A DNA stretch of 64,000 bases from Centruroides vittatus (lineage: Eukaryota): the NCBI RefSeq assembly GCF_030686945.1, contig NW_027122681.1, forward strand, positions 1,802,938-1,866,937, in the 5' to 3' direction. How positions within the stretch are numbered: the first letter of the stretch is position 1; each line of letters begins with the position of its first letter. The notes under the pieces were generated by a model. That model made no database searches. It saw nothing but the letters and a program-made list of their open reading frames with translations, and had not been told where the DNA came from. Shown in pieces: positions 6,321-58,935 of this stretch. A program made the position numbers and the translations under genes.

Positions 6321-6494
6321 AAAACTAACACCTTCTGGACAAAATCCATAAATAATTTGCCTACATCCATTGAATATACTCATTATTTGCTTAGGTGTCT
6401 GGATCACTTCTTCACATCCATCATAAACGTTTTGCCATTCAATTCGTACATTTGTTAGAGATGCTTGAGTTGTTCTCATAATTTGTTTTTGTAC
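6321..6494 (-). CDS. PARP4: PARP4-like C-terminal region exon (VQKQIMRTTQASLTNVRIEWQNVYDGCEEVIQTPKQIMSIFNGCRQIIYGFCPEGVSF)
   Basis: Acceptor tttaag; donor AGTTTT|gtaagtatattt; 58 codons with an open frame. Confidence 0.45.
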
Positions 6495-11249: not shown

Positions 11250-11420
11250 GATATAAAATATTTAGAATAAAATTATTGTGACATCATTACAATGTTGTGC
11301 TGCAATTCTAATCATATTCTTATCTTATTCAGTTTAAAATATATACTCTTGATTTTAGTAGTGTCTTCCTCCTGTAAATCATACTTTTCCTGATAACAAC
11401 AGTGTCATACCAATCATCGG
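11250..11420. repeat. Truncated copy (head only) of the same family
   Basis: Reads gtgctgcaattctaatcatattc…aaaatatatactcttgattttagtagtgtcttcctcctgtaaatcatacttttcctgataacaacagtgtcataccaatcatcggtctaactctg. Confidence 0.5.
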
Positions 11421-11835
11421 TCTAACTCTGTTGTGGAGAAAATTTATTTTGTTTATTTCATTAAATTTATAAGAAAAGTCTAGACAGACATTTGATTTCC
11501 ACCCCATACAAAAAATATATCATAAAATAAATAATACCTCTTAAAACAAAAACAAGCAAAACAACAAAGATAAATTAAATAAAATAAAAACAAATAACAG
11601 ATCTTAAGAGAGATACAATGCTTTTTACATTTCAATTTAAAATCAGGGAAATCGGGATGTAAAAATTCATCAAAATTATTAAGATTTTGCAATATACAGT
11701 AGAAGAAAGATCATTGAGATAGATTTAGAAGATAAAAAAAAGTAAAAACATAAGTAAATGAGCAAAGTTTTCTTGATGGAATTTGAAGTGAAAGCCAATA
11801 TTGATAAATAAGACCTTTAAAATTTGTAATATATT

Positions 11836-22929: not shown

Positions 22930-23135
22930 TTTAACTAGTTTATCAATATGATTCTTGAAAGTTATTTTTAATTGAAATCATGTAACTTCCAGTCCAGACT
23001 GGAAGTTCATACATATTTAACCAGGGCCCTTAACTTTCCATATCTGGTTTCGATTTTCATCTATCTCTGTTCTCATGATTAATAAAAGATGGACAGAGAG
23101 ACAATAGAGGGAATGTATGGGGCTGAAATTTGAAA
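22930..23135. repeat. Copy of the same family (middle + tail), abutting the right arm of the gag-pol unit
   Basis: Reads ccagactggaagttcatacatatttaaccagggcccttaactttccatatctggtttcgattttcatctatctc…gacagagagacaatagagggaatgtatggggctgaaatttgaaaaatttcagacc. Confidence 0.5.
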
Positions 23136-26031: not shown

Positions 26032-26215
26032 CTGAAAATCAGATACTTCAGAATCAGATGTTTTAATTCCATGAACACTTTCAAATCCTTCTGGAGGCTT
26101 AACCAGAGAAATCTGAAACTTATTTGTATGGTATACTTTTCCTAATGCAACTTCACAAACCAGGATAAATCTGGTATTCCTCATTTTATTTACAGCAGAA
26201 TATTTAATGCAAGAA
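26032..26215 (-). CDS. PARP4: PARP4-like exon: PARP catalytic domain continued (SSCIKYSAVNKMRNTRFILVCEVALGKVYHTNKFQISLVKPPEGFESVHGIKTSDSEVSDFQ)
   Basis: Acceptor ttaattttag joins in phase 2 (AG+T). Donor TTTCAG|gtgaaatt. FILVCEVALGK matches PARP1 LILLGEVALGN. Confidence 0.65.
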
Positions 26216-26651
26216 CTAAAATTAAGTTAAAATATACATTTCAATATTATAATACTAATAATATTAGATTAACAGATTTTCATTTACTATAATTATTACA
26301 AACTGTATAAATAATTGCCAAGCCCCATATTAATATATAAATACATAACTGCCATATTTTTCAGACTATATTGTGATTGCTAATTCATTACATAAACTAA
26401 ATAGTTTAGTTTAAAGGCAGACACTTAAAATTCATCTTCTATTAAATTTATTAACCAGAAATTAATTTAGATTAAAATTAATAATTTAGAATTTTATGGA
26501 AGAAAAGAATGACTCAGAATGGACTTGATTTTGCATCTTTAATACATCATGCAGATGCTTTACCAGTTATACTGCATGTAACTCCATCTGATCTTTTCTT
26601 CCAGACATGTGTTATTCAAAGTCATATAGTCAAACATGTTAATTATGTGAG

Positions 26652-27356
26652 TGTAAAGGTCGCCTTTGGTGGCCTGTGTCAAAGAAACCGCCCGACTGAG
26701 GTAATTGCTCCCACCTGGGGTCGGGGCCATAAACGGCCGGAAGGATCAAAGGTGGAGCGTCTCCACTTAAGGGACAATGTGTTGGCCACGTGCCGGCCAG
26801 CTTGAGAAAACAAGAATAAATAAAGCACGGACGCAAATGTGAGCTACGTCGGCGGGAGATAGGGCGGACGTCTTGGAAGGCTCTAAGAAGGGAAAGGAAG
26901 TGATTGGTCGCAGGAGGCAGTGCCAGAATCCCTTAAATTGGAAGGGTGGCAAAAAAGCGAGGAGAAAGGGCGAGGGACCTGGTACGTGGCGGTCTCTAAC
27001 AACAGGCAGACCTTTGAGGCGGATAGAGAGAGTGTTCTCCTCTTGGAAAGTCCTCTGGAGAAAGGTTGTTGTAGAGACGGACGGCCACGAGGTTAAGCCA
27101 TCTCCGGAAGAGTGACTCGTGTTCCCAGGCCAGCTAAGTCGACGTGCTGCATCACAGCTTCGATACTGTAGTGTACGTAATGCTATTACATAGTGTATAT
27201 CTTTGTAAATATTTGTAAATAAACTGTATATAACTAATTATCGAGTGTGGAGGTGTGACTTTCAACGGACCATCAAACGGACAATCTCGAGGCGTAAAGA
27301 ACGACTCGGGACGGAACATTTGTAAAGATCACGAGACGAGTAAGAAGGATCTTCAC
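26652..27356 (+). repeat. 5' LTR (705 bp) of a young non-autonomous LTR retrotransposon
   Basis: Near-identical to 29688-30392, with one visible mismatch (gggaaagg versus ggggaagg). Starts TGTAAAGG and ends …CTTCAC. It is followed by a TGG-type PBS, TGGCGCAGTCTTCGAC, at 27357. Confidence 0.85.
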
Positions 27357-27826
27357 TGGCGCAGTCTTCGACAGGATATTCTTGCAAATCTTCAGGAGAT
27401 TCTCGCAAGACGACAGGAAAGTACTGAGCCCACATTCGAGATTTGGATACTTACGGAAGGAAGAGTAGCCGGAAATCAAGGCGGAACAGAACTCAACATT
27501 GGTAAGTTGTTCTTGATTATTTGTATTCAGAATGCCGGGACGCGGAAGGACTCAAGGGTCAAAAAGGGGTATGCCATGTTCTGAGGATCAGGGAGGTCGG
27601 GCTGATCTTAGTCAATCCCAGGAAATGGATACGGAGCCAGAAAGGGAAATTTTGGACCCCGAGGTCGAGGTTACAGACAACCAGAATGAAATAGAGGGGA
27701 CGTGAGTCTGACGAGTTAGAGAAGTTACGCTTGCAGATTAGACTAGCCGAAATAGACTACTAAAAACAAAGAAATAGAAATTAAAAACAGGAAATTGAAA
27801 GGGACATTAGAAAAAGCGAAATCGAA

Positions 27827-29500
27827 ATGGAAATTAGAAAAAGCGAAATAGAGTTAGAGAGAGATCGTCTACGAAGTGAATCTAGGACTAGTAATAACTC
27901 TGAGCTGGGAGGTAACTTGGATAGCCTAGCTAGAAAAATCAGATGGGCTTTACCTAAAATGCCAGACAAGGAGGCGGAAGTACCGTCGTGGTTTCGGGCC
28001 GTAGAGGTAGTGTTACAAACGTACGATGTGCCGGAAGAACTTCAGGGGCAGCTAGTTTTAACGGTGCTATCGGAGAAATGTAAAACGGCGTTAAATAGGC
28101 TTACGGCAGACGAGATCAGGGATTACCAAACCTTAAAACAATTCCTACTAGACGAGCTGAGACTGTCTGCCGCTGAGTACCTCAAAGAGTTCACTTCCGC
28201 TGAAAAGGGAAGCAAAGAAACGTGGCCCCAATTTGCAGCTAGAATGGAGGATCTGTATCGGTATTATCTGAATAGTAGAGGCGTAGATTCTTTTGGGCAG
28301 CTAACAAAATTAGTGGTCTCGGATCACCTTAAGACTAAGTTAGATGCCGACACTAAGCGTTACGTTTTGTTGCAAGAAGGTAAAGGCTGGTTCCCACCGG
28401 AAGAGTTAGCCAGATACGCAGATAAGCATGCGGAGGCTGTGGGAAAGGGTGACGTTAGACTTATACCTGAACGCGAAAGGGATAGAACAGTCACTAGAAC
28501 TGGAGGCATGAGCGCGAACAATGGAGGATCAAGAATGAGATGCTATGTCTGTGACCAAATGGGTCATCTCAGAAGGGATTGTCCTCGGAGACATATTAAA
28601 GAGGAAGGACCGAAGTCTAAAGCAACGCGAGCGGTTAAAATAGACGAAACGGTAGAATCGGACGAGCAGCTAGTAGCTAGGGTAAAGGTGAACAGGGAAA
28701 CGATCAGCGGAAACGTACCCGTTAGTGTAAACAAAAATCTCCTGCTCGCTTGTAAAGATAATAAATTTTCTGCAATAGTGGACACGGGGGTAGATATGAC
28801 GGTTATTAGGAAGTCTGTAGTGCCTGTTTACGTGTCGCGGGCAGCGAGAAAGGTTAAGTTGATCAGCGCATTTGGGCAGCAGGTATCAGCAGTGTTAGCG
28901 ACAATACCTGTAAGACTAGAAGGGAGGTCGAATAAAAAGAAAAATGATTACGCTCCAGCCTTGATAACTTGCGCATTAACTGACGAACTTAGCTGCGGTA
29001 CAGATGCATTACTTTCGGCAGCCGATTATTGCGTTTTGAGGAGAGTCGAACGGACGAAAACGAATAGGCGACGGAAACCAGTCGCGAGGGTTACGGTTGC
29101 GAAAGAAAGCGGGGAAAATAGGACGAGCCCCACGACAAATAAAAAGAGCGATGCTAGAAAATATTGTAAGGCGGGTCATGGTCGGCAGGCAAGCGTTCCC
29201 CTTCGGCTAGTTGACCGCACGCCTCTTAAGGAACAATCGGTCCCTAGGGCATTGGTAGCGCGGGATAATAAGGCAAAAATCGCGCACAGAAGAGGGAAAA
29301 ATCGTAATGAGATCGACGTACTATCCAGACGGGAAATCAGGAGCAATCCGGAACCCCCAGATCGTACAGACAAGGCAGTTATGTCGGTATTAAGTCCTTC
29401 GGATAGATGTAATCAGTATCTACCAGGCGATTCTGAATGCAATGTGACGGGACAATTTGCCGAAGATGTTATTGACTGTGTAAAATATCTTTTTCTGTAA
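27827..29500 (+). CDS. Gag-protease ORF (557 aa) of the truncated LTR element: capsid-like domain, CCHC zinc knuckle (CYVCDQMGHLRRDCP), aspartic protease (IVDTGVDMTVI); no RT or integrase
   Basis: ORF 27827..29500. The ORF ends 187 nt before the 3' LTR. A polypurine tract ggtgggagg lies immediately before the 3' LTR. Confidence 0.8.
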   Translation: MEIRKSEIELERDRLRSESRTSNNSELGGNLDSLARKIRWALPKMPDKEAEVPSWFRAVEVVLQTYDVPEELQGQLVLTVLSEKCKTALNRLTADEIRDYQTLKQFLLDELRLSAAEYLKEFTSAEKGSKETWPQFAARMEDLYRYYLNSRGVDSFGQLTKLVVSDHLKTKLDADTKRYVLLQEGKGWFPPEELARYADKHAEAVGKGDVRLIPERERDRTVTRTGGMSANNGGSRMRCYVCDQMGHLRRDCPRRHIKEEGPKSKATRAVKIDETVESDEQLVARVKVNRETISGNVPVSVNKNLLLACKDNKFSAIVDTGVDMTVIRKSVVPVYVSRAARKVKLISAFGQQVSAVLATIPVRLEGRSNKKKNDYAPALITCALTDELSCGTDALLSAADYCVLRRVERTKTNRRRKPVARVTVAKESGENRTSPTTNKKSDARKYCKAGHGRQASVPLRLVDRTPLKEQSVPRALVARDNKAKIAHRRGKNRNEIDVLSRREIRSNPEPPDRTDKAVMSVLSPSDRCNQYLPGDSECNVTGQFAEDVIDCVKYLFL

Positions 29501-29687
29501 AATATTAAATACTGTATATTGTTAGTATAGTTTATTATTTGTAGTAACTTGATCCTTGTAATAAGAAAGGAGGAAGTGTAGTGTAACAAAATAATTTGTA
29601 CGGTAAAGATTGCTGTGTGTCGCGGTAGTATTGTTTATGTCAAACAGGCTTTTGTTGAAGCGCAGTTTGAACCTTGTCGGTGGGAGG

Positions 29688-30392
29688 TGTAAAGGTCGCC
29701 TTTGGTGGCCTGTGTCAAAGAAACCGCCCGACTGAGGTAATTGCTCCCACCTGGGGTCGGGGCCATAAACGGCCGGAAGGATCAAAGGTGGAGCGTCTCC
29801 ACTTAAGGGACAATGTGTTGGCCACGTGCCGGCCAGCTTGAGAAAACAAGAATAAATAAAGCACGGACGCAAATGTGAGCTACGTCGGCGGGAGATAGGG
29901 CGGACGTCTTGGAAGGCTCTAAGAAGGGGAAGGAAGTGATTGGTCGCAGGAGGCAGTGCCAGAATCCCTTAAATTGGAAGGGTGGCAAAAAAGCGAGGAG
30001 AAAGGGCGAGGGACCTGGTACGTGGCGGTCTCTAACAACAGGCAGACCTTTGAGGCGGATAGAGAGAGTGTTCTCCTCTTGGAAAGTCCTCTGGAGAAAG
30101 GTTGTTGTAGAGACGGACGGCCACGAGGTTAAGCCATCTCCGGAAGAGTGACTCGTGTTCCCAGGCCAGCTAAGTCGACGTGCTGCATCACAGCTTCGAT
30201 ACTGTAGTGTACGTAATGCTATTACATAGTGTATATCTTTGTAAATATTTGTAAATAAACTGTATATAACTAATTATCGAGTGTGGAGGTGTGACTTTCA
30301 ACGGACCATCAAACGGACAATCTCGAGGCGTAAAGAACGACTCGGGACGGAACATTTGTAAAGATCACGAGACGAGTAAGAAGGATCTTCAC
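29688..30392 (+). repeat. 3' LTR (705 bp) of the same element
   Basis: Direct repeat of 26652-27356. A TGTGAG target-site duplication is present (26646-26651 and 30393-30398). Confidence 0.85.
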
Positions 30393-30394
30393 TG

Positions 30395-31640
30395 TGAGTA
30401 CTGGGATGACATATGTGTTTATTGCTTTAACTGTGTTCTGAGTATAGGATTTAACTTAATTTGGTATTCATTAATTAATCTTTGCTTTATTTATGTATGT
30501 TCTGTTAGTTTGGCCTGTTGGAATCCTAAATACTTGTAGAACTCACCTTCTTCCATGGATTCAATAACGTCTCCATCTCCAAGTGGAAAATCTTCTTTCT
30601 TCAGGATTTCTTTTTCTATGTGAAGTGGGCATTTATTTAGGCCAAACTCCATTTGTATGTCCTTGGTGTATGAATGTGTGATTTGTAGGAGTTGATGAAG
30701 TTGTTTTTGTGTAGATGCATAAAGTTTTATGTCATCCATGTACATGAGATGTGACAGTATAAACTGTGTTGTTTTTTCATGTCTGATATTGTAGCCATAT
30801 TGTGGGTTGTTTAACATGTTGGATAATGGGTTCAAGGCTAGGCAGAACCAGAGAGGACTCAAGGAATCTCCTTGAAAAATTCCTCATCTAATAAATATTT
30901 GGTCTGTTTGTATAAAAGTGTTATGAACCCTGAGATGTATTGTTGTTCTCCAATGCTGCATGGTGTTTTGGAAGAATGCAATGAGTGATGGATGTATTTT
31001 GTACATATGTAGAATATGTATTAGCCAACTGTGTGGAACACTGTTGAATGCTTTTCTGTAGTCTGTATATGCCATGTGTATGTTTGTGTTGTTTGTGTGC
31101 TTGCTGTAGAATGACTGAATCTATGAGTAACTGTTCTTTGCATCCCCTGTGATTTCTATCCTTTTTGTTGTTCCTTTTTGTTGTTCTGTTAGAATGTCGT
31201 GTTCTTCAACATGTTTGTATACTTTGTTTGTGATACAGGATTCAATAATTTGAAGAGTGTTGGAAGACATGTAATTGGTCTGTACTGTGGTATTGTTGTT
31301 TTTAGGTTTCATGTAGGCGATGCCCTGAGTAAGAAATTTTGGCATGTCTTGTGGATTGATGATGATGTGTGTTAGGTGTTTAGCTAGTTCCTGGTGCAGT
31401 GATGTAAATTTTTTGTACCAGAAATTGTGAATGTTGTCTACACCAGTTGTGTGTTCTGTTAACAGAGTAGTGGATGTTGTGTACGTTTATTTCAACATAG
31501 GGCATAGTTGGTATGTTATGCAAGTTTTTGTTCTCCTCCTCAATCCAGCCAGCATCAGCATTGTGTGTAACAGCACTGGACCAAAGAGAAGACCAGTAAG
31601 TTAAGAGTTCTTCTTCTGTTGATGTGCCACTGTGCTGTGT
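30395..31640 (-). mobile_element. Non-LTR (LINE) retrotransposon RT pseudogene, frameshifted, interrupted by the LTR-element insertion
   Basis: Three consecutive minus-strand ORFs in different frames carry RT motifs: 31121..31345; 30884..31075 (DYRKAFNSVPHSWL); 30491..30862 (FILSHLMYMDDIKLYAS…EFGLNKCPL, the YxDD motif). The sequence likely continues at about 26220-26651 on the other side of the insertion. Confidence 0.7.
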
Positions 31641-31801
31641 ATCAGTGTTTGTTTTGGTACTGATGTGTCTGTAGAAGAGTTTTTATTGTTTGTGAATAAT
31701 TTTGTTGTTTTTGTAGTGAACATGTTTTTATTATTATTATTATTAAAGTAATTAAATTAGTAATAATTAAATTTTTCATTAGAAATATAAACAAAACCAA
31801 C

Positions 31802-32038
31802 CTTGCAGAATCTGTAAAATAAATTCCACTGCCAAGCATTCCAACATCAGTTCTTTCAACTCCAGATTCTGCTACAATAACTTTTGGCAACTTCAAACCA
31901 CGTGAAAGAATACCAACAATGTTAGAAGATACAGTAGAGTGAAATAATAATTGTTTGTTTGTTATTTGGCTTGCAAATTCTGCATATTCTATATCACGAT
32001 GAATAGCATAAATATTATGAACTTTAATACATGTTTCC
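31802..32038 (-). CDS. PARP4: PARP4-like exon: PARP catalytic domain, H and Y of the triad (…LLFHSTVSSNIVGILSRGLKLPKVIVAESGVERTDVGMLGSGIYFTDSA)
   Basis: Acceptor ttttgtag; donor CTGCAAG|gttggtttt. It closely matches the PARP signature LLWHGSRxxNxxGILSxGLRIAPPEAPxTGYMFGKGIYFAD. Overlaps ORF 31642..32082. Confidence 0.7.
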
Positions 32039-35774: not shown

Positions 35775-36020
35775 ACAGAATATTAAAACACAATGAAACA
35801 AACAATTATTTATTGTGACATTGTCACAATGCCATGCAGCAATTTTTAATCATCTTTTAATTTTAAAAAATCATGGAACTTCCAGAAGTTAATCAGGGTC
35901 TCAAGCCCTAAGCTTTCCATATCTGGTCTTGATTTTCATTTATCTAATTCCATTCTCAAAATTAATAAATGAGAGAGAGAGACAGACAGACAACATGGAA
36001 ATGTATATATCTGCAATTTG
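35775..36020. repeat. Copy of the same family (head truncated, middle + tail present)
   Basis: Reads tgtcacaatgccatgcagcaatttttaatcat…ccagaagttaatcagggtctcaagccctaagctttccatatctggtcttgattttcat…gacagacagacaacatggaaatgtatatatctgcaatttgaaaattatagg. Confidence 0.55.
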
Positions 36021-36630: not shown

Positions 36631-36791
36631 CGAAATTGTGAATTAATCACAAAATTATTCATTTTGTTAAATTCTTCACTATCAGAAGACAAAAATTGAA
36701 TATGACATCGAAGTGCTTTATATTTGGCATGGAGACAACCTTTCGGTGACCAACCAGTGGCTTCACTGACAGAAACCATGTCTCGTAAAAC
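36631..36791 (-). CDS. PARP4: PARP4-like exon, end of regulatory domain (VLRDMVSVSEATGWSPKGCLHAKYKALRCHIQFLSSDSEEFNKMNNFVINSQF-R)
   Basis: Acceptor aattttag; donor TTTCG|gtattg (phase 2). It joins the catalytic exon at 32038 in frame. It resembles PARP1 [28 protein letters not shown]. Confidence 0.55.
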
Positions 36792-36863
36792 CTAAAATTT
36801 TAAATCGCTTTAATAAGTACAGGTAAAATTATTAAATTAAAATTCAATTTTTTATATCCTCAC

Positions 36864-37040
36864 TTGACATAGGTCTTTTTTCTGTGCAACTAATTGTTTA
36901 GACTTGATAGTTTGACTGTATTCTGACACATGAGGTAAAATTGAATAAAATTCCTTACTAAGTTTCTCTAGTAATTCTTCTGAATCAAATTCATTTAACA
37001 TTGAGTGAATTTGGAGTAAAATACTTTCTGCTTCATCAAT
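36864..37040 (-). CDS. PARP4: PARP4-like exon, PARP regulatory domain (IDEAESILLQIHSMLNEFDSEELLEKLSKEFYSILPHVSEYSQTIKSKQLVAQKKDLCQ)
   Basis: Acceptor tgtatag; donor TGTCAA|gtgagg. SKEFYSILPHVS resembles the PARP1 segment LSNRFYTLIPHDFG of the helical domain. Confidence 0.55.
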
Positions 37041-37133
37041 CTATACATTTGATAAAATTTTATAAAAATTAACAAGTTTTATCATTATAATAAAATTTTT
37101 AAAAATTTATAATATTCAAAGAAAGTTACAAAC

Positions 37134-37268
37134 CTTCCACAAAGGTATAAATTCAGGATGACTTAGATATTTCTTTAAATGTCCAATTGCTTCTGTCCAT
37201 ACTAATTCTACAATATTTAGAACATTTTTATCTATGTGTGAAGATAATGAACTTAATTCCAACTGCAA
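37134..37268 (-). CDS. PARP4: PARP4-like exon, PARP alpha-helical regulatory region (LQLELSSLSSHIDKNVLNIVELVWTEAIGHLKKYLSHPEFIPLWK)
   Basis: Acceptor atttcag; donor TGGAAG|gtttgtaac; 45 codons. Confidence 0.5.
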
Positions 37269-38599: not shown

Positions 38600-38990
38600 T
38601 AACAAGTAATTATTTATTGTGATATCATCACAATGCCAGACTGCAATTTTAATCATATTTTCAATTTATTTAATTTAAAATATATGCTCTCCACCTCAAA
38701 TTAGTAGTGGCTTGCCCCTATACATCATACTCTTCCTTTAATAACAGAGTCATGTTGGTCATCTACCTAACTAACACCTTTCAGGAGAGACATTTTGAAT
38801 TGAAATAATGTACCTTCTGGTTTGCATCAAAAGTTCATAATCAAATATGAAAACTTTGGAGCAGGAGGCCCCAAAGTTTCCATATTTGATTATGAAAATT
38901 GAAATTAAGAAAAGACAGATGAACAGACAAACGACAGTGGAAATTTATGTCTACAATTTTTTCAAATTGCAGCCCAATTATATAAATATA
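38600..38990. repeat. Copy of the same family with an internal hairpin (caaaagttcataatcaaatatgaaaactttgg / ccaaagtttccatatttgattatgaaaattg)
   Basis: Head …cacaatgccagactgcaattttaatcat…tagtagtggcttgcccctatacatcatactcttcc…; tail …gacaaacgacagtggaaatttatgtctacaattttttcaaattgcagccc. Confidence 0.6.
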
Positions 38991-39935: not shown

Positions 39936-42381
39936 CTGAAAACCAACAGATAAGAATAAAAATATTTCCTGTATGATATCAAATTTTAAATATTTGACAT
40001 AATTAATAATAAATGTGTGTTGTCAATTAAAATGTTTATATATAATCACACTACCTGTAATTAAAAAAGTGCATATTACCTCAAACGAGCTAATAAAAAT
40101 ACAATTATATTAAGAATTTTTTTTACTACTTTAATACAATCCTGTTAAACAACAAATGCAATAAAATAAATAATAAAATTCAATGTATTGTGATAATAAA
40201 TATCTAGTAATACACTGTATATACTGTATTTTATAATGTGCCAAATTAATATTTAAAATCTGTAACTATATAGGTATGTGCTGCTTAACAAATGTAATTG
40301 TCAAATGTCAACATAGAATATAAGCATATGAAAAAACAGTTCTGAATACCTAGTGTCTGTATATGGACAAAACTTGTGTTTATTGCATTTATGAACACTT
40401 TACAACACAATTATTGATGTAAATTTTACTGTAAATGAATAAAAGATTAAAACATGATTTACACATTGTTAGTGTATAGTGCTACAATTATTACATGTAA
40501 AAACAAGAGACACACAAAACTGAGAAGATATGTTAAGTACAGAATTTTCTAACAAGCTCTACTTATATCATGATGTTATTCTTTAGATTATAGAAACATC
40601 TGATAAAAATATTTCTGCAATTACATTTATCATATATGATACATCAGACATATAAGTATGCTGATAAATGCATATCATCGTAAGAAATAAATTCTTAAAT
40701 TCCTTTGCAATATAACTTAGATGCTAAGCAAATCTGAAGGTTTCCTCAACCATACTTTATCTAGCAAAAAAATTATTCAATGCTATTTTTATTACATTTC
40801 AGATGAATTTAAAAGAACAAATTGAAATATTACATAACAATAATGTATTAATTCATTTTTAAATTTATTTAGCTATATTGTATTTCATCCAAATAATAAT
40901 TAATTTAATGTATTTATAACAAAACTAATAAGAAATTCAAACAACAATTATCAATTTCATTTGTATCGCTTAATTCCACGATTACTGATAACTCCATTAA
41001 TTTGAATAAGATAAAGATATCTGAAAACAAATAACTGACTAACAATAAAAATAATCTTACTTTAAGAGTTACACAAATATTTCATTTTCTTTTGAAAAAT
41101 GAAAATGAAAATATAAAATTGAATTACCAATTTCAATATATAGAATAAATATTTAAATATTTTAGATTTTAATCTACTTTTCATATATAGTTAAATCTGT
41201 ATATCAAATATGTTTACTTGAAAACCTACTTGAAAACCTCTTTCATCTTGAAATTTATTTTTCCTCCTTTATTTTCAGTCTAAATTCAATATATTTTCCA
41301 TGTTTATTACAAATAATTTTCTCACAAAACCTCTATCTCAAATTATGGACTGAATTGTCAATTACTATCTCAAATCTCAGTGACTACATTATCATATTAT
41401 AAACTGTAGTTGAGAAACATCTCTTGCAATATAACACTGCTTTTCTTTGATTGGCTATGACTTTGATTTAGTTTATTTGTTTATGGCCTCATGATACATG
41501 AGCAATACCTCCAGGGAAAACTTTAAATAGGAAACTGGTCCCTATTTAGGTGAAGAAAACCTGGAAAACATGCTGGCCACATGGAAGAAAACCATGTGGC
41601 CAGTCTGTTGGTGAAGTGCAAACTCAAGACCAGTGTTCAGTAGTTTTATCCACTCAGCCATTGGTGGGCTAAGGCTACAAGTTTGGCTTGAGTCTTATTG
41701 GTTGAAGAAAATCAGACATTAAAAATGATTGACAAACTATTTCTGTTAAGGTATATCAAAAATGTTTTATCTATACCTAATACAGGTATGTACTGTACTT
41801 GCTATTGTGTTAATAAAATACCATATCTCCAACCAAACCTATTAATGTTTACTGTGCAGGAACCTCTATATCTCAAAATCTGACTAGCTCGAATTTTTTT
41901 CTCATTCCTGCGAGATTCGAGACAGCTTCATCTGTATTATTTTTTTTTTTTAAATAATAATTATTTAAAAGATCTAAAGATATAGCTTTGTATATTTAAT
42001 AAAAACATTTTTAAATTGATCAGATTAAGATATTACAGCCATGAGAAAAATGGAAAAGAAGTTACGATTAGAAAGATATGAAAATAAAAAGTTGTACAGA
42101 AGAAACAGAAACGCTATAAAAATTTCAATACACAAAACAAAAAATAATAATATGAAAGGATAAGGCAATGCTAGTTTGCTGCGGCATACTAGAAGGCTAG
42201 AATGACACTTTAGGGGTGATGCAAAATAGTACCGAGAAACACAAGGATTCTTACATGTATTACTGAAAGTACAAAATATGCACTCTATACTGACAAAAAA
42301 GTATGATTACACAAGAAAAAAATTACCAAGTTTGGGTGGCACTATTGAAAAAAATGTTGGAAAACACTGGAATAAAGAACT

Positions 42382-42522
42382 ACACTCATGACACCTTATA
42401 AATTTGCAGCCGTGTTTATTTCTGGATATTTCCTGAAGAAGGTCGTTAAACACGACCGAAAACGTTCGTTTGTACCAAATAAACACGGCTGCAAATTTAT
42501 AAGGTGTCATGAGTGTAGTGTT
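42382..42522. repeat. Perfect 42-bp inverted repeat (actacactcatgacaccttataaatttgcagccgtgtttatt) separated by a 57-bp loop
   Basis: 42382-42423 is the exact reverse complement of 42481-42522. Confidence 0.85.
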
Positions 42523-43323
42523 TTAATAAGATATGCAGTCTACGATGAGTTACTGGAATAAAGATAGAGAAATTTGAAAGAAAAGTAATAAAAACAAAGA
42601 AATTTTTAAATTTATATTAATACAATATTATATTTACTGTATTCATTACTACTACTATTATATCAAGTACACACTCACAAATCTCAATTCTGAATATTAT
42701 ATTATGAACAAATATTGTTCATTTTTCAGTTAAATATTCCAGCCAAAAATAAAATAAAATCCTAGATTTTTTTAAAAAATATGACAAACTTGAGAAATTA
42801 ACACTATGTACATACTTTTTGAACATAAATGTGTGTACCAAATACAATACAGAAATTTATAAATGTATGTGTGTTCGTTTCTTGTCATTTTGACTTCCAT
42901 TTCTTTATGCATCATGCTGCTAATCTGAACAACTTCATACTGCAGTTCAAATCACTAACAGTACACTGTAATCAGTTTAATGTATGTGACATTGACTAAT
43001 TTTTATAAAATAAATCAGAATGGAAACAAATTTCATTTTTTATTTTACATTCTTCCAGATTTTGTTTCACAAATTACTCAAAAATTACCTCAAATTTAAG
43101 AAAGTTTATTTAAACTATCATCAAATTAATTTAAGAATTATATACTGCATTATTATTTTTTTAATCTTATTGCTATCATTAAAAGCTATTAACACTAAAC
43201 TAAGAAAGCAGCATTTAAAATTTTACGTTTATTTTTTATAAAATATAATGTAAAATATTCTTCCGAAATATATCCTTAGCACTTAACAGGTTTACTAAAA
43301 TTTCAATTATAAATTTAACTTAC

Positions 43324-43516: not shown

Positions 43517-43639
43517 CTGGAAAAAAAATAATAGTGAGTAAATTATATATTCCGTGTATAATGTAAATATACTGCTGAAATTTTTAGATAAGTAATTACT
43601 CGTTGCAACATCTTCACAATACCGAGCTGTAATTTTTAA

Positions 43640-43860
43640 ATTACGAAAAGCTTATGGTCTAGACCAGAAGTTTGTATATGGTTAATTGGGGTTTCTGGCC
43701 CTTAAGCTTTTTGTGTTTTGCCCCTGTACATCATACTTCTCCTGATAACAATCAAGTCATACCTGTCATCTATCTAACTCTGGTTCTCAAGATTAATGAA
43801 GGACAGACAACAGATGCCAGTGGGAATTTACAGGTCTGCAATTTGAAAATTGTAGCCTAA
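43640..43860. repeat. Copy of the same SINE/foldback family (full head + tail)
   Basis: Reads gcccctgtacatcatacttctcctgataacaatcaagtcatacctgtcatctatctaactc…gacagacaacagatgccagtgggaatttacaggtctgcaatttgaaaattgtagcc. Confidence 0.6.
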
Positions 43861-44824
43861 TAATAATCAATCAATACCCTTTACAATTGAAAAATAAGAT
43901 TTCAAAAATACAAAAATCATTCATTTACATGAAAATTGAGGATTTCAAATTGAGTGTTTCATTATTAATATTGTCAGGATTTTACATTAATGAATCAAAT
44001 GAGTAATAATGATTTATGAATATGTATGTAGCACTATAAAATACACAGATAAGAGGATGAAAATAGCTATTGTCTCTAATTGCTGCTTACTGTTACTATT
44101 TGCTAATATAAAATTCTAATTTATTGCAATTAAGTTTTCAAATCTAAAGGAACATTAAGCAGTTTTAATTACACATGCAACAGACACAGATCTGTAATTG
44201 AACCTTCACATACCAACTGATTGTAATTAAAAATATGTCTATTCAATGCTGACTAGAGAAATATTTAGCAGTTTAAATTCAATCAAATTTGATACGGTAA
44301 CATTTCAAGATGTTTCACATGTCTTGAAATGTCACTATACGAATAAAATAAAAAATTTGTACCAAAATTCACCACTATGGTATTTTTGACACTGCAAACA
44401 AGCATTTTATTTCTACAAGGCATTCATGCTATACAAAGAAACCCTAGCAATGCAGGAAATACTACTCAATGTGGTCCCCTTTGAAGGTGTATAACCTGAA
44501 GGCAACGAGCAGCGCATTTGACAACTGACAGTAATTGATCCACTATGATGCTTCTCACAAGCAATGTGATACTGTCTTTCAAGGCTGCCAAATTTGTAAC
44601 ATGTCCTTAATAAATCACACTTTTTAAGTATCTAAACAAACAAAACTTTATTGCTCGCAGCACGAAAAGTTCCATAGAGGTAAGTTTCGATACAAACTGT
44701 TTTTTCATGGAAATATCGTCTGCAAGTCTTGAAATGTTACCTTATCAGACTGCTGAATGTCTTGTTAAAAAGCATTGAAACTTTAATTACAATCTAATAC
44801 ACATCTCAAAGCCTGATGAGTTAA

Positions 44825-45146
44825 TATAATAATCCAACAATCACCTAAATATTCAGGCTATAATATGGTTATAATCAAATGATTAATACAAATAAATTTG
44901 GTACTAGAGGTAAGTGTTAGGCACCATCTCTTATCTAAATTAATAATTATAATTTAATAAATAATTTAAAACCTTCTGGAAGAAAATAACTGACCCAGGG
45001 TGGGACTTGAACCCGCAACCTCCGCTTGCCATGCGGTGTGCTACCAATTGTGCCACCTGGACCCCAAGCCAGCCTTTGCTTCCATTAATTATTTAATTAT
45101 AGCCATATTATAGCCCGAATATTTAGGCGATCGTTGGATTATTTAA
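44825..45146. mobile_element. Inverted-repeat (~60 bp arms, ~88% identity) element whose ~200-bp loop contains the tRNA-like unit
   Basis: 44827-44886 (aataatccaacaatcacctaaatattcaggctataatatggttataatcaaatgattaat) is approximately the reverse complement of 45084-45146 (attaattatttaattatagccatattatagcccgaatatttaggcgatcgttggattattta). Confidence 0.6.
44992..45063 (-). tRNA. tRNA-like sequence (anticodon-loop reading GGC / Ala-like) with Pol III A box (TGGCACAATTGG) and B box (GGTTCAAGTCC); probably a pseudo-tRNA or SINE head
   Basis: Minus strand reads GGTCCAGGTGGCACAATTGGTAGCACACCGCATGGCAAGCGGAGGTTGCGGGTTCAAGTCCCACCCTGGGTC. The acceptor pairs (two G-U wobbles) and the T-arm and anticodon stem-loop form. 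The D-stem is not complementary (GCAC/GCAC), so it is unlikely to be a functional tRNA. Confidence 0.4.
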
Positions 45147-47679
45147 TTACAATCAACTAATACACAAAAAAATTAGAAATTGAAACTGAATCATAGCTCA
45201 GTAATCTTGTACAGTTCTCAATTACACTAAATACAATATTGTCAAATAAATGGCAATGAAAATTAATACAATCAAAACAAGATGAATGATCAGGATAAAT
45301 GAAATGTACTTTGTATGTTAACCTTTCTGCTTTTTCTATCAAATATAAAAATGATAAAATGTTAAGGAGTCTTTGAATATTTTAATCAAGATTAAACATC
45401 TTTCAAAACATTTTCCTCATAATCAGATCATAAAACAACTAATTCAAATAAGGAACAGTTTTTATTTTTAAAATATTCTCATGGCACTATTTGTTTGAAA
45501 TATATTACATTACTGAAACTTATGTTTTAAGTTTAAAATAAAATCTCTTGTGAACTAACCTATTGCAATATATAATATACAGTAGAGAGTCGTTTATCCA
45601 AATCAATTGGGGACTGGGGTTGTTCGGATAACCGATTATGTATGAAAAAATATTTTAACCTATCCGATGTTGAAATTTTTCTCCGTTGCATGTCGCTTCT
45701 TGTTGAATTTTCGTCGATTTTAAGTCTAACGAAAATTTTTATTATAATAATCGAGGCTATTGTATCGTTAAAAATTATTTCTTTATTTTGTACAAACAAA
45801 ATAAATATATTGAAAAATATAAAAACATAAAAATTATACTTTAGAAGTAAATCTAGTATCAAAAAAGTTCGATTCAGCACGACACAGTCCGACTGGAAAG
45901 CATTCGGATAACTGACAATTCGGATAAACGACTCTCTACTGTATAAACAGCTATTATATAAAATTAACAACTTGTAAATCATTAGTTTTTAAAGTAGTAA
46001 TAAAGTAAAGTACAGTTATCCTTCATACAACACAGTTTTGCTCTAATATGGTTGGAAAATTGGTGATATCCCCCATACAACACAACTGGTTTTGCTTTAA
46101 CAGTTTTGAAAATCCTCTGTACAAAATTTCGCAATTTTTAAGTGTAAATTTTGTTATTCAAGTAAGCTTGCATGTTGTCTCAAATTTGCCCATGAATTTT
46201 AGAATATTGAAACTTTCAATTTGTTTTGTGCCTTTTATCAAGTTCATTATAATGAAGACTGATAATGTAATTTTTTTATGTACTGTACACTGAGACCATG
46301 TCTTTTATTCATTTTTATTATATAATATTATATATTATATATAATAAAAATGTAATTTTTTTCTTCCTTGTCCTAACTTTCCTATCACTCAGATGTCATT
46401 GTCATCGCTTTCAGACTTTAGCCCTTAAAACTGTCACTGTGTTTTCTTTTTATAGATTAATCTTTGTATTTAGTAGTTTATTTAAACAATTTTAGATAAG
46501 TGATGTTAAACATTTTATTAACTGTAGGTAAGCAATCATTCAAAAATGACAAATGAAATATGGTGATATCTCCGTACTTGAACAATTCAGTATTCAAACA
46601 CAAATTTTGGAAAAAAGATGCTCGGTACTCGACCAAATAAATGCAACCTGCAAGAACAAATTTTCTATTAACAACATATTTTTATTTCATCATCCATGAA
46701 AATTCTTTTTATAATAAAAATAAAAAGCATAAAAATGTTGCAGATACTTCTGATCAAGATCAACAAAAAAGCTGAGACGACGACAATACTCTGTAAAAAG
46801 AAAGCACCCTCGTTTAACTAAAATTAATATTAACATGTCATACAGTATTTTTAATTGTGATTGTTAGCAAATTATTGATTGCTTTAATAAACAATTACAT
46901 TATTTACATTACTTAATTACAAAAAAAATAGTATACTTTTGCTAACTTCTGGAATGCAACTTTGTGTTTTGCATTAGTTCTTTGTTTCATACAGCACAGA
47001 TTCACATAACAAGACAATTTTTCGGAACTTATCTACTATGTTAAACAAGGGATACTTGTAATTTATTTTCTACAGAAACGTATTTATGTTAATTTTTCTA
47101 TGTATTATGATAATTACTGACATTTATCATTTAACAAACACAATATTCAGCACACAATAACAATTTAACAATGTTAGAAGATATTGAAAAACTTTTATTT
47201 TATGATGAACTAGCATCAATGTTCAAGTAAGAGACTTGAACAAGTAAGAGTTGTGGAGAAAATACTGTGCAATGAAAATAGTAATTGCATTTTTATGTAT
47301 CTTGTATAGAGTAGTTCCATCATATTTTACAGAAATATCCATAAAGATTAAAAAGTTTCTCTCAAATAACGAAGAAAGTAATTCTTAATAGAGCAATCTG
47401 TAACAAAACATTATCAACAGAGACAGTTCATTATTTTCAGCATTATGAAATTCTCAGGTTTATTATTAATAAGATCACATTTTTACAGAAAATTCTCTTT
47501 TATACATGTATTCATGTATACTATACTTTTATACATTTATAATATAAATAATGTATGAAAATTCTCTTTTATATATGCAATAAGTTTATTTATTTATTTG
47601 AACTTATATTAATTAGAACATTTATCATCACTCTAAACACTCGATTAATAACAATCTAATTACTAAGTTATAAACTTAC

Positions 47680-48189: not shown

Positions 48190-48735
48190 ATATTTCCAAA
48201 CGAGCAATTATACATTGTGACAATACCACAATAAATAATGCACTTAAGTTTAGTAGTGTCTTACCCATGTGTACTGTACATCATACTTCTCCTGTTAACA
48301 AAGAAGTCATGCCAATTATCTATCTAACTCCGTTCAGGAAAAATTTTTGAATTGAAATAACATTACTTCAGACCCAAAACAGAAGTTTGTATATAGTATA
48401 CTGGCACAATGAAGTGACGCTTAGTCAACACTGGGCGAGTTTTTCCATCTTTATTTAGTTAGATAAACAAAAGACTAACTAAATAAAGATGGAAAACTTG
48501 CCCAGTGTTGATTAAGCATCACTTCATTGTGCCAGTATACCAAATACAAATAACAACACGGTTTCGACAGTACCAAAGTTTGTATATAGTTAATCAGAGC
48601 CTCCTGCCTCTAGGCTTTTTATATCTGATCTTGACTTTCATCTAATATTGTTCTTGATATTAAGGAAAGACAGACAGACAGTCGACAGTGGGAATTTATA
48701 GGTCATTTTTTCATATTGCAGACCAATAAACTGAC
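48190..48735. repeat. Copy of a recurrent composite SINE/foldback repeat, with its internal hairpin expanded to a ~150-bp near-perfect palindrome (48388-48545)
   Basis: Family motifs seen: the head tagtagtg(t/g)cttgcccct-tacatcatacttctcctgataacaa…tcatctatctaactc; the middle cagaagtttgtatatag / aagctttccatatctg; the tail gacagacagacaacagtgggaatttataggtctgcaatttgaaaattgtagcc. The palindrome reads tatactggcacaatgaagtgacgcttagtcaacactgggcgagtttttccatctttatttagtta|…|taactaaataaagatggaaaacttgcccagtgttgattaagcatcacttcattgtgccagtata. Confidence 0.6.
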
Positions 48736-50893: not shown

Positions 50894-51893
50894 ATTTCTC
50901 ACTCCAGTATTTATAAGAAGACTGTTATTTTATCTGATATTTTTAATTACTCAAATTGCATTAATACAAATGTGCTGAGAAAAAATGAAAATATTTTGAC
51001 ACCTAGTGACAAATGTCAGCATTTCAGGAAAAGTATTTCTTTGGAAATATCACATATTAGAAAAAATATAATACTTTTTTTCTTATTTATTTTTGTTATA
51101 ACAAAATATTTAACACTATTGAAAGTTATTTTCCTTCCTTAAATATAGAAAATTATGATTGGTTATGAAAGCCGTCTGGCAGGGTTAATACATCAAGTTG
51201 GGAATTTTCGATACAACAAGAACAATTGATCACCTCGTCAACAGATTGTATGTACATTAAAAACGAAATTCTCCTAACTCAAAAGTTTTGGATTTTTGCC
51301 CACGCAAATAACATTTTGTTCAGTTTTTATTAATGTTTGTATATTTGTTTTAGCTCAGATCTCACATTCACCAATATAAAAACTAAAAAACAAGAAAGAT
51401 TTACTAATATAAACGAAGAAATGAAAATAGCCGTGTCACATATTAGACTCGATATTGATATAATCTTCAAAATCCAAAAACTCATGTATTTATAATTAAT
51501 TTAAAGAAGTCCCATTTTCATAAAATGTTATTCTCATTACAGTTTTTACAAATGTAATATTTTAAATTAATGTCATTTTACTTTTACTTATTCCTTGACG
51601 TGATCTAACTCACGTGTATTGGGTTGATAATCGGTTCAGATAGCCTTTACCCATTTGGGTAATCCTATTTCACACTGAGTACGATTATATGTCGGTGGCC
51701 GACTCGTAAGGACCAATCGTAACGGGTGTTAGAAATCGTTTGGTAGAAGTTTATTTTATCGACACCAACGTTTTTCTTCTTAATTATATTTATAATAGAG
51801 ACATACATGCTAGACATGTCCAAAACACATCGAATATATGAAGGGCAACTCATTTAAAAAACGCTATAAACAAAAAATCATAGGACTACTTAC

Positions 51894-51910
51894 CGACTGT
51901 GCACCGCCAT
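51894..51910 (-). CDS. Putative first coding exon of the PARP4-like gene (M-A-V-H-S-R..., 17 nt, then GTAAGT donor)
   Basis: Minus strand reads caagctaaagcgATGGCGGTGCACAGTCG|gtaagtag. It lies in a CpG-rich region with three CACGTG E-boxes. Its phase-2 end joins in frame to a tttttatag acceptor 7 nt upstream of the exon-A ATG (CG+A = Arg, then L-N-M-A-L-L-E-T-F). It could instead be 5' UTR with an in-frame upstream ATG. Confidence 0.35.
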
Positions 51911-51959
51911 CGCTTTAGCTTGTTTTGGTCGTGGAGCTACACATTGGAGGGCGGACGCG

Positions 51960-52100
51960 CACACAGCGTGTCACGTGACCTGGATTCGACGTCAGTCGCT
52001 CACGTGACTACAGCTCTGACGCGTTTCCGGACAACTTTTTCTTGTGGCGGAAGAATTCGTTCTGTTTGCACTATACCTCGCAGGCGTCACGTGATAGAGT
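51960..52100 (-). promoter_or_regulatory. CpG-rich core promoter with three palindromic E-boxes (CACGTG at 51972, 52001, 52088) and a CRE-like TGACGTCA half-site (51988), upstream of putative exon 1
   Basis: The sequence reads gtgtcacgtgacctggattcgacgtcagtcgctcacgtgactac…gcgtcacgtgatag. It is GC-rich in an otherwise roughly 25% GC region and lies immediately 5' of the ATG…GTAAGT first exon. An identical copy lies in inverted orientation at 58575-58715. Confidence 0.45.
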
Positions 52101-54751
52101 AAAGACACCCTACGGTGCCCACATTAATAGCGGTGCTTCGCTGGGCTGCTGTTTGTAGACATTTGCGAACGACGGTGAAAAAAAAGAGACGCCCGTAATA
52201 TCGTGATCTATAATTTTAAAATATGCGTTTTTAGAGAGAAAATTTAAAAGATGGGTTCCAATAGCATCCAAAGTAGCTGCGAAAAAAACTCGAGACGACA
52301 CTTATATATATTGACGCGCGTTTTCACAACTTGTAAATTTTCATTCATAAAACTACATAATGGACACAAAAACCCGCGTGGACAGCCCGCGGACCAGTTT
52401 GACGAACTTTGCTTAGTTACGCTTCCGTAACACCGTAACATTCTATAACGAAATTCACAAGCTAAGGTTTGACAACGACGATTTATTTTTCGAGATTAAC
52501 TTGTTAAAAAGAGAACAATCAAATTACTTTAAAATTCAGATTAAATGTTTATAACTATAAATTTATAAACACGTATGTTTTACATAGCCTAACTAATCCT
52601 TTAAATTTAAAAATGTAAAGTTATATAACAATAATTTATATGTAAGATGTGGATCAATAGGCTACTACATAAAGACTTTTCTGTTTGGTAATGTTTTACT
52701 TAAAAACAACAGATGCAACACGCGTCAGAGCGAAGTTCTCACACCCAGTTTTTTTTTCATTCCAATACCTCGCGGACAAATACTTTTGTGAATTAAAATA
52801 AAAGTAATGATACGGCGGATCACAGTTTGAGTACGTCCGGTTAGACCGCCAGCGACTTTCTTTTAATTTCTTTTATGAATCGCACAAATTTTATTTTTTA
52901 TCAGACTTTTCAATTAAATACGCAAATATCTGCAGCTTTTAACACCAAAAGGTATACAAAAATGATTCCATATTGAAAGAAATCGGAAGTAACGTAGTTG
53001 ACAGAAAATTGCCAACCCGGATGTATTTAAAGAACGAATAACGTAACCTTTCTAGATATTTGGTGAATTCTTAATGCCTAAATGTAACGAAAGCGTTTGC
53101 CTGGTAAAAGTTGTGCTCGATATCTAAAAAGGTTTGGTTATTCATTTTTTAGTAACGCCGGCTTAAAAACAAATCTTTAAACTTGGAAATTTTTCCTACT
53201 GCTTCGAGTCGAATAAAGTCGGATAAATGAAAGACTTCTGAACGCGTTAAGCGACAATCAATCCTAAAAAACAGTAAAATCTTATAATTTACTTGTGGTT
53301 GTAGCACCCTTAAATCTTTTCTAGAAAATTACTCTTTTAAAAGAGATTTTGTAGAAAAAGTAGTGTATATTTTTAATATTACTGTTAACGGTTAAACGTT
53401 TAAGAAAGGAATACAAACACAGCATGAAGTAACGTAAAACATGTATTATGTTACATAATTCATTTTTACATAAATATTTACATATACAAGCACCATAATG
53501 CGAGTCCATTTCGAAAACTGCGCAGATAAAGTTTTCTTGTACTGTGTAGACTCAGGAAATAACAAAAATGACACATTTTCACGAATTGCTCGTAAGCAAA
53601 ACATAGAGAATACATTGAGGGAAAAATAGTTTTTTTTAATGATGTTAGTAAACTTGTAGGCCTTATACTAAATGAACAAGGAACAATATCGTCTGCTTGG
53701 ATTAATTAAAGTATTTTCTTCAACTATCACTATTCTAGCTGTACAGTACATATGACACACATGACAGTAATTCTCTCTTTAGGTAGGAGTAGCTGACCAT
53801 TTACAGTCCAGCAGGGGATCCATTTCAGAATGAGTGTAAATGGAGTATAAAGTAATGAAATTTAAGTTCTATTTTCTTTAAGGTGACCAGATTTTAACAT
53901 TTGTGAAGCGGGACAAAATTGACGGGGGAGTAGGAAGTTGTTGTCTTCTTGAAAAAAATTGTTCTAGATCAAAATTTTATTATCAAAGAACGCAAAAATT
54001 GTATTGTTATATTTTTTTAAATTTCAATGTATGTAAAATTTACAAATATAATAAATTTAGATACTATTATAAATCTTTAAAAACTCTTCTTTTTTCGCAT
54101 ATTTCTCAGTCGAGTGAATTTTTTAGTAGATTGCTGTCGTTTAAAATGTCATTAAATTTTTCGCAAGAGTTTAAATTATATTTCACACATAATATGGCTT
54201 TCAAAGTCTCAACACTTAATTGTGATTAATCAGATATCCACGAAAGCGCCCTTATTAAACTTGTAAATAAAACAGTGTTAATCTAAAATTTTACATAGTT
54301 GTATCGAAGAATATTTACAGTATTATATTATGAAATGAAATTTTACTAGTAACGTCTAAAACTGTTTTAAAATGTATTTATTTGATGTTTCAATAAATTT
54401 TCTTAACTATTTTCTATCTGAAATAAGATTTCTCCTTCTGCAGTAAATGTAATATTTTCTAAATGAATGAAATAAAATAAAACTAAGTTCGTACTTTAAT
54501 ACGTTTATACGCGCTTCAGCGCTTCTTATACTTAATCATTTAGTATAATCAGGGATGGGCAACCTTTTTCTATGTAACGGCCGTATTTAAAAACTTTTGA
54601 ACTAACGCGGGCTCCAAACGAGAGAAAAGAGAAAAAAGAAATGCCAGTAAATCGCAATTATTTATTAATATGTAATCATAAATTAGCATAGCTGCTTTTT
54701 AATATTTATATAAACGATATTATAGAAACCATTCCCGAAAATAATAATATA

Positions 54752-57779: not shown

Positions 57780-58935
57780 TATGCGATTCATAAAAGAAAT
57801 TAAAAGAAAGTCGCTGGCGGTCTAACCGGACGTACTCAAACTGTGATCCGCCGTATCATTACTTTTATTTTAATTCACAAAAGTATTTGTCCGCGAGGTA
57901 TTGGAATGAAAAAAAAACTGGGTGTGAGAACTTCGCTCTGACGCGTGTTGCGTCTGTTGTTTTTAAGTAAAACATTACCAAACAGAAAAGTCTTTATGTA
58001 GTAGCCTATTGATCCACATCTTACATATAAATTATTGTTATATAACTTTACATTTTTAAATTTAAAGGATTAGTTAGGCTATGTAAAACATACGTGTTTA
58101 TAAATTTATAGTTATAAACATTTAATCTGAATTTTAAAGTAATTTGATTGTTCTCTTTTTAACAAGTTAATCTCGAAAAATAAATCGTCGTTGTCAAACC
58201 TTAGCTTGTGAATTTCGTTATAGAATGTTACGGTGTTACGGAAGCGTAACTAAGCAAAGTTCGTCAAACTGGTCCGCGGGCTGTCCGCGCGGGTTTTTGT
58301 GTCCATTATGTAGTTTTATGAATGAAAATTTACAAGTTGTGAAAACGCGCGTCAATATATATAAGTGTCGTCTCGAGTTTTTTTCGCAGCTACTTTGGAT
58401 GCTATTGGAACCCATCTTTTAAATTTTCTCTCTAAAAACGCATATTTTAAAATTATAGATCACGATATTACGGGCGTCTCTTTTTTTTCACCGTCGTTCG
58501 CAAATGTCTACAAACAGCAGCCCAGCGAAGCACCGCTATTAATGTGGGCACCGTAGGGTGTCTTTACTCTATCACGTGACGCCTGCGAGGTATAGTGCAA
58601 ACAGAACGAATTCTTCCGCCACAAGAAAAAGTTGTCCGGAAACGCGTCAGAGCTGTAGTCACGTGAGCGACTGACGTCGAATCCAGGTCACGTGACACGC
58701 TGTGTGCGCGTCCGCCCTCCAATGTGTAGCTCCACGACCAAAACAAGCTAAAGCGATGGCGGTGCACAGTCGGTAAGTAGTCCTATGATTTTTTGTTTAT
58801 AGCGTTTTTTAAATGAGTTGCCCTTCATATATTCGATGTGTTTTGGACATGTCTAGCATGTATGTCTCTATTATAAATATAATTAAGAAGAAAAACGTTG
58901 GTGTCGATAAAATAAACTTCTACCAATCGTTTTAA
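57780..58935. repeat. Right arm of the inverted duplication (reverse complement of 51725-52880); spacer 52881-57779 (4.9 kb)
   Basis: See the left arm. The spacer contains a LINE RT fragment (54752-55237). Confidence 0.85.
58756..58772 (+). CDS. Duplicate copy of the putative first coding exon (ATGGCGGTGCACAGTCG|gtaagtag), plus-strand, in the right arm of the inverted duplication
   Basis: Identical to the minus-strand copy at 51894-51910, with the same E-box promoter immediately upstream (58575-58715). The downstream acceptor exon was not identified. Confidence 0.25.

Follow-up and report, generated by a model that had tools for sequence, protein, structure and literature searches.

How a tRNA-like Pol III unit comes to lie between the arms of an inverted repeat is the question raised by a short locus in the genome of the scorpion Centruroides vittatus. 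A preliminary description had left three origins side by side: capture of a tRNA-derived fragment by a MITE, insertion of a tRNA-derived SINE into a palindrome as its target, or membership of a family giving rise to structured small RNAs. The locus was analysed here within a stretch of 64,000 nucleotides (contig NW_027122681.1, positions 1,802,938 to 1,866,937 of the forward strand; hereafter the window, to which all coordinates refer), which is AT-rich, with 24-30% G+C outside its retroelements. The features are collected in Table 1.

The inverted repeat, previously given as 60 bp, proved to be real, while its length had to be revised, since each arm measures 75 nt (arm sequence, AATAATCCAACGATCGCCTAAATATTCGGGCTATAATATGGCTATAAT). 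The two arms are 84% complementary with 178 nt in between, giving a whole unit of 328 bp with a terminal inverted repeat at each end. A 26-mer and a 32-mer from the core of the arms were found at two sites only in the 64-kb window, with none expected from shuffles. When folded as a whole, the unit formed a hairpin of -132.9 kcal/mol, against -73.9 +/- 5.3 kcal/mol in shuffles (z = -11.1), an energy equalled by none of 100 shuffles. This AT-rich, non-coding unit of ~330 bp contained no open reading frame of at least 120 aa. The arms are mismatched at 12 positions, nine of them by transitions; at each of the three sites where the right arm has CpG, the left arm reads CpA. These differences are those of ordinary transition and CpG decay, and a compensatory pattern was absent.

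Table 1. Coordinates of the inverted-repeat unit, its second copy and neighbouring features of the window.
Feature	Position	Strand	Remarks
Left flanking direct repeat, TTTAATTACAAT-CTAATACACA	44782-44803	plus	18 nt outside left arm
8-mer CTGATGAG	44813-44820		Outside every hammerhead match (Rfam, permissive threshold)
Left inverted-repeat arm	44822-44896		75 nt; 63/75 positions complementary to 45075-45149
Spacer	44897-44990		AT-rich; left arm to tRNA-like 3' end
TTTT, terminator-like	44986-44983	minus	5 nt beyond tRNA-like 3' end
tRNA-like core, now a pseudogene	44991-45063	minus	73 nt; anticodon GGC; ARAGORN and Rfam
B box, GGTTCAAGTCC	45013-45003	minus	Sole GGTTCRANNCC match in 64 kb
A-box-like, TGGCACAATTGG	45055-45044	minus	Read from sequence; fits TRGCNNA...GG
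Leader	45064-45074	minus	11 nt; right arm to tRNA-like 5' end
Right inverted-repeat arm	45075-45149		75 nt; less decayed arm, CpGs kept
Right flanking direct repeat, TTTAATTACAATCAACTAATACACA	45142-45166	plus	First 8 nt overlap right-arm end
Copy 2 of whole unit, heavily decayed	about 26318-26651	plus	Orientation as copy 1; blastn, nhmmer, segment tests
Copy 2 tRNA-like core	~26510-26587	minus	
Probable rest of copy 2 right arm	30399-30420	plus	TACTGGGATGA... vs GTTGGATTA...; weak, nhmmer E = 0.1
LTR retroelement, young	26651-30394		Inserted into copy 2 right arm
LTRs of this element	~26651-27358 and ~29687-30394		~707 nt
PARP-like gene exons	31789-32037, 36639-37238	minus	Catalytic and regulatory domains
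Possible further PARP-like exon	26134-26214	minus	
Ty3/Gypsy polyprotein ORF	13803-19325	minus	Intact, 1840 aa; best match Centruroides sculpturatus, 74% identity
Inverted-repeat-bounded unit	5211-6769		45-nt arms, 84%
Inverted-repeat-bounded unit	7165-7710		Nested pair, 89-nt and 57-nt arms
Inverted-repeat-bounded unit	9837-10238		55-nt arms, 89%
Inverted-repeat-bounded unit	42373-42525		49-nt arms, 96%
Tight hairpin	48386-48550		58-nt arms, 91% complementary, 49-nt loop
Inverted duplication	51733-52884 and 57782-58933		1152 nt, 100% complementary, 4.9-kb spacer
Direct-repeat family	35797-35863, 38601-38667, 43587-43653		
Direct-repeat family	11372-11428, 43724-43780, 48274-48330		
Direct-repeat family	23026-23066, 35905-35945, 48607-48647		

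Between the arms, ARAGORN called a tRNA-Ala (GGC), the only tRNA call of the window, in agreement with the GGC anticodon loop described before. Rfam matched the same segment to RF00005 over the full model (1-71) with a score of 29.5 bits, the gathering score being 29 (E = 0.044); at a permissive threshold it found nothing at the locus besides the tRNA. As the Rfam score is thus borderline, the core is judged from its sequence to be tRNA-like and not the canonical high-scoring tRNA that had been named as counter-evidence to the preliminary description. The D stem, GCAC/GCAC, carries two mismatches and is degenerate, as had been noted; the T stem, with CCCAC as its 3' half, carries one, and the anticodon stem of 4 bp has an A:A mismatch at its top. 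G3:U70 is the identity pair of alanine tRNAs; at position 3:70 of the core, U:G or C:G is found according to the register chosen, and never G3:U70. In its D and T arms and its variable region the core may be nearer to eukaryotic tRNA-Trp than to tRNA-Ala, which we take only as a lead.

The intact A and B boxes claimed for the core were both located, and the core was placed on the minus strand. The consensus of the A box in type-2 Pol III promoters is TRGCNNA...GG, and a TTTT run is the typical look of a terminator in such genes. On the minus strand the sequence past the tRNA-like 3' end reads GTTATTTTCTTCC and includes such a TTTT run. The right arm, when read on this strand, also provides an AT-rich, TATA-like stretch ~20-40 nt upstream of where the tRNA-like sequence begins. 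This sequence is internal to the unit, its start being 86 nt from the nearer unit end, behind the right arm and the leader. With its A box, B box and terminator, the label of a Pol III unit is a fair one for the ancestor of this locus, whereas the present copy bears three mutations that break its stems.

These three mutations have a common signature. The three D- and T-stem mismatches are CpA where CpG would pair, and reversion of the three CpA to CpG (GGTCCAGGTGGCGCAATTGGTAGCGCACCGCATGGCAAGCGGAGGTTGCGGGTTCAAGTCCCGCCCTGGGTCA) gave a perfect cloverleaf as the minimum-free-energy structure, for which ARAGORN likewise drew D and T stems free of mismatches. In the AT-rich background of the window the CpG observed/expected ratio is 0.38-0.54, with TpG/CpA at 1.2-1.28; between 32100 and 51000 the ratio is 0.38, with an excess of TpG/CpA that is not seen in the young Gypsy element. 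This depletion is consistent with germline CpG methylation. The core is thereby shown to have been a well-formed cloverleaf at one time, which was broken by CpG deamination in a CpG-depleted and presumably methylated genome. Mutations of the CpG type against such a background therefore mark an old, decaying sequence and not a working tRNA gene.

It is accordingly highly improbable that the core represents a working tRNA-Ala(GGC) gene in conventional flanks, with the inverted repeat as an incidental feature. The ARAGORN call and an Rfam score just over the gathering threshold would favour such a gene, as would the presence of A box, B box and TTTT together; however, the score of 29.5 bits stands at the threshold of 29 and not well above it, the mismatches fall in the D stem (two), the T stem (one) and the anticodon stem (A:A), the alanine identity pair is missing, and the sequences on either side of the core recur in a second copy in which the core is fully decayed.

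This second copy emerged from a self-search of the window by blastn, in which the stretch at about 26295-26650 was colinear with positions 7-329 of the query at 61% identity (71 bits, E = 9e-15); elsewhere in the window the unit gave blastn scores of 34 bits or less. The order of parts is that of copy 1, from the left arm through spacer, terminator region and tRNA-like core to the beginning of the right arm. The terminator TTTT is kept (TTCTTTTCTTCC) and again lies 5 nt past the tRNA-like 3' end, where the two copies align as GGAAGAAAATAA / GGAAGAAAAGAA; the terminator region common to both reads GGAAGAAAA(T/G)AA. Each segment of copy 1 was compared with copy 2 by local alignment against 300 shuffles per segment. 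The observed score was reached by 1/300 shuffles for the left arm, 0/300 for the spacer (score 27.5 against a shuffle maximum of 21.5), 1/300 for the tRNA-like core and 5/300 for the right arm, while the left flank (67/300) and the right flank (199/300) were not significant. Decay of the copy 2 core has been almost purely by transitions. An alignment coded in purines and pyrimidines, covering the core and the first few bases of the leader (76 nt of an 84-nt query), scored 45 against 17.9 +/- 3.1 in shuffles, a value matched by 0/1000 shuffles and by 0/1734 tiles of the window.

Since the unit, core included, thus occurs twice with unrelated flanks, the comparison of the two copies shows that arms and core form a single repeat and did not come to be nested by chance. 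Arms lacking the tRNA-like core, the other outcome named as contrary evidence, were not encountered within the 64-kb window. The ends of the homology could be placed only within ~10-20 nt, because just two copies are available, the second at 61% identity. A third copy was not found in the window by an nhmmer profile of the two. Both copies are shown to be old, as far as divergence of sequence can tell, because the arms are 84% alike and the copies 61% alike. The stem of copy 2 is largely decayed, and at 26651 its right arm is broken by an LTR retroelement, beyond which a probable remainder of the arm was found (Table 1). The locus is a dead repeat copy and presumably inert at present.

The retroelement in copy 2 is itself of recent appearance. 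In the stretch of its LTRs that was compared base by base there was one mismatch; TGTGAG stands on both sides of the element, and the 5' LTR is followed by TGGCGCAG, which resembles a primer-binding site. Its only open reading frame encodes a gag-protease of 557 aa with a zinc knuckle and an aspartyl protease. The exons of a PARP-like gene, the nearest database proteins of which are 58-60% identical, are arranged such that copy 2 and the LTR insertion would lie in an intron of this gene. Copy 1 also appears to sit in or near the PARP-like gene, which runs on the minus strand.

Several further repeats were observed in the window. The Ty3/Gypsy element is young, because its CpG observed/expected ratio is 1.12, and other retroelement fragments are present; homologue searches gave reverse transcriptase (RT) matches of 39-60%. 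The four other inverted-repeat-bounded units of Table 1 showed no sequence kinship to the tRNA-like element. The tight hairpin is probably a MITE; on both strands it gave sub-threshold Rfam matches to miRNA precursors, with 51.5 bits for mir-3688, the gathering score of which is 84. The perfectly complementary inverted duplication represents a duplication of very recent date, the two long inverted termini of some large element, or an artefact of assembly. Short dispersed direct repeats fall into three families (41-67 nt, 61-88% identity to the reference copy, members often near each other), which are probably pieces of a further interspersed repeat. The genome appears to be rich in MITE or foldback elements.

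What lies immediately outside the unit is less uniform between the copies. A direct repeat of 22 nt surrounds copy 1, with a score reached by 0/500 dinucleotide shuffles and 0/179 equally spaced pairs of the window, and no comparable direct repeat was present in the flanks of copy 2. Target-site duplications typical of the superfamilies of DNA transposons include TA, TTA/TAA, TTAA and 8 bp. The repeat around copy 1 greatly exceeds any cut-and-paste target duplication in length and does not coincide with the unit ends; possible origins are a long target duplication of a retroposition-like event, a duplication associated with repair, or what is left of the end of a neighbouring copy. The unit ends are AT-rich and permit readings as TA or TTAA target duplications, which are possible and at the same time trivial, copy 2 being too decayed to judge. 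Neither unit end carried an A-rich or simple-repeat tail on either strand, and an autonomous partner sharing the ends of the unit was not found within the window.

Searches were also made beyond the window. The arm core had no match in viral contigs; a generic D-arm pattern matched five times in these contigs, three times where an unrelated phage tRNA begins (Trp, Pro, Lys) and twice at no called tRNA. Metagenome scans for the arm core, or for the tRNA-like core with its trailer, gave no match, nor did contigs of prokaryotic genomes searched with the arm and core patterns. No copy of the unit was found in 24 kb of C. sculpturatus or in two metagenomic contigs. Two retroelement ORFs of the window, looked up for exact matches, gave none.

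From this evidence we lean towards reading the unit as a dead MITE-like non-autonomous DNA element with a tRNA-gene-like Pol III unit as its cargo. The capture of a tRNA-derived fragment by a MITE thus becomes the best supported of the earlier readings, in view of the colinear copy 2 with its unrelated flanks. A SINE inserted into a palindromic target is disfavoured because the inverted-repeat-bounded unit itself recurs in copy 2; copy 2 has the arms, the tRNA part is internal, TTTT follows within 5 nt and a tail is lacking. A related proposal would place the inverted repeat within a retroposed element, be it a SINE of atypical form or a read-through transcript that was copied back into DNA, moved by LINE machinery and leaving the 22-nt repeat as its target-site duplication. 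The length of such a duplication suits target-primed reverse transcription better than any DNA transposase, the flanking repeat TTTAATTACAAT[CAA]CTAATACACA is significant by both comparisons given above, the core holds Pol III promoter boxes, and RT-bearing retroelements exist in the window. We nevertheless consider retroposition quite unlikely. Instead of being 5'-terminal, the tRNA-like part is set 86 nt into the unit, and it is followed directly by TTTT, so that a Pol III transcript would stop short of the remaining sequence; A-rich or simple-repeat tails are absent from both ends on both strands, copy 2 is without a flanking direct repeat, and around copy 1 the right repeat overlaps the last 8 nt of its arm while the left repeat stands 18 nt off.

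The two copies could also have arisen by local (segmental) duplication of a composite locus, for instance a tRNA gene or pseudogene along with the sequence that flanked it, or a SINE that had entered a palindrome, in which case the unit would not be mobile. Just two copies are known; they lie 18.5 kb apart on one strand and in one orientation, both in or near one PARP-like gene, and the boundaries of their homology are blurred at 61% identity. Because of this spacing and shared orientation local duplication stays a live, if weaker, rival, which we hold to be unlikely: flanks of 130-140 nt do not rise above shuffles whereas internal segments of 75-95 nt do, breakpoints just outside both arms would need chance, and many other short inverted-repeat-bounded repeats are present in the window. 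Improbable, too, is a hairpin-RNA locus, the stem of which would be processed into small RNAs (endo-siRNA or miRNA-like), whether with a host function or as a by-product of read-through of a MITE. The very stable fold (-132.9 kcal/mol, z = -11), the probable position of the unit in or near a transcribed PARP-like gene, and the resemblance of other hairpins of the window, below threshold, to MITE-derived miRNA families are in its favour; however, the arms differ by decay transitions without compensatory changes, the structure is not conserved, as the largely decayed stem of copy 2 indicates, and Rfam matched the locus to tRNA only. An arrangement of the Pol III tRNA-miRNA type, in which a tRNA drives a downstream hairpin, was considered separately and ruled out by the TTTT between the tRNA-like part and the downstream arm.

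A MITE-like element with a tRNA-like cargo can be set against several known systems. MITEs are short, non-coding and non-autonomous DNA transposons of less than ~800 bp, for example those of the Stowaway/Tourist type and the arthropod MITE families. The unit resembles them in being short, non-coding and AT-rich, in its terminal inverted repeats and strong hairpin potential, and in its two copies with unrelated flanks and with homology ending near the arms, in a genome rich in similar units. It differs from them in the length of its inverted repeats, 75 nt being long for a MITE, in an internal region that is a whole tRNA-gene-like Pol III unit, and in the 22-nt direct repeat that flanks copy 1. 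With tRNA-derived SINEs, such as the Twin SINE of Culex and the Ruka SINE of ticks, it shares a short, repeated, tRNA-related sequence with A and B boxes. In contrast to these, its tRNA-like part is internal and not a 5'-terminal head, a terminator follows that part directly in both copies, there is neither a LINE-derived body nor an A-rich tail, and the whole is bounded by inverted repeats. Dispersed tRNA pseudogenes or families are likewise comparable in their decayed cloverleaf, promoter boxes, terminator and flanks conserved between copies; here, however, what the copies share as flanks is an inverted repeat of 75 nt, at the ends of which the homology stops.

Dada elements provide a further comparison (Kojima and Jurka 2013, PMC3706591). 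They are described there as DNA transposons of 4.7-11 kb that encode a DDE transposase and target tRNA and snRNA genes; the families Dada-U6 and Dada-U1 are without terminal inverted repeats, and insertion takes place inside the small-RNA gene, so that the halves of the gene flank the element with a duplication of 6-7 bp (PMC3706591). Common to Dada and to the present case is a DNA transposon physically associated with a tRNA gene. Unlike Dada, the unit holds an uninterrupted tRNA-like sequence in the middle of an inverted-repeat element of 330 bp. As the tRNA-like sequence is both uninterrupted and internal, a Dada-type insertion in the sense of this description (PMC3706591) was ruled out. 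In the literature, of which our coverage was incomplete and therefore yields weak evidence, we found no MITE with a tRNA-gene-like core and no scorpion repeat of such a kind.

The favoured reading of a MITE-like element suggests the following course of events. The tRNA-like cargo would have been acquired from a host tRNA gene, and consists of a short leader, the 73-nt cloverleaf with A and B boxes, and the TTTT 5 nt downstream. The unit may then have moved as DNA through a transposase recognising its inverted ends. Young copies would have been transcribable by Pol III, their product being a short tRNA-like RNA that starts from the internal promoter and ends at TTTT. Inverted-repeat-bounded architecture is common in this genome, because the window holds several other such MITE-like units. 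It is a tentative proposition, and one we consider possible only, that a cut-and-paste family has by way of its inverted ends spread a complete Pol III-transcribable tRNA-like gene through an arachnid genome.

If so, it would have been a DNA transposon, in place of retroposition, that scattered tRNA-like genes or TFIIIC-binding B boxes. A family of this kind, if confirmed genome-wide, would be an example of a DNA-transposon-type element with a tRNA-gene-like Pol III unit. For annotation, standard pipelines call such copies tRNA-Ala(GGC) genes, pseudogenes or 'SINE/tRNA', and arthropod tRNA counts are inflated in this way. The finding would also have a modest bearing on how Pol III promoters and TFIIIC sites are scattered through genomes, and would offer a non-SINE route to the expansion of tRNA genes and pseudogenes and to the seeding of Pol III or insulator sites.
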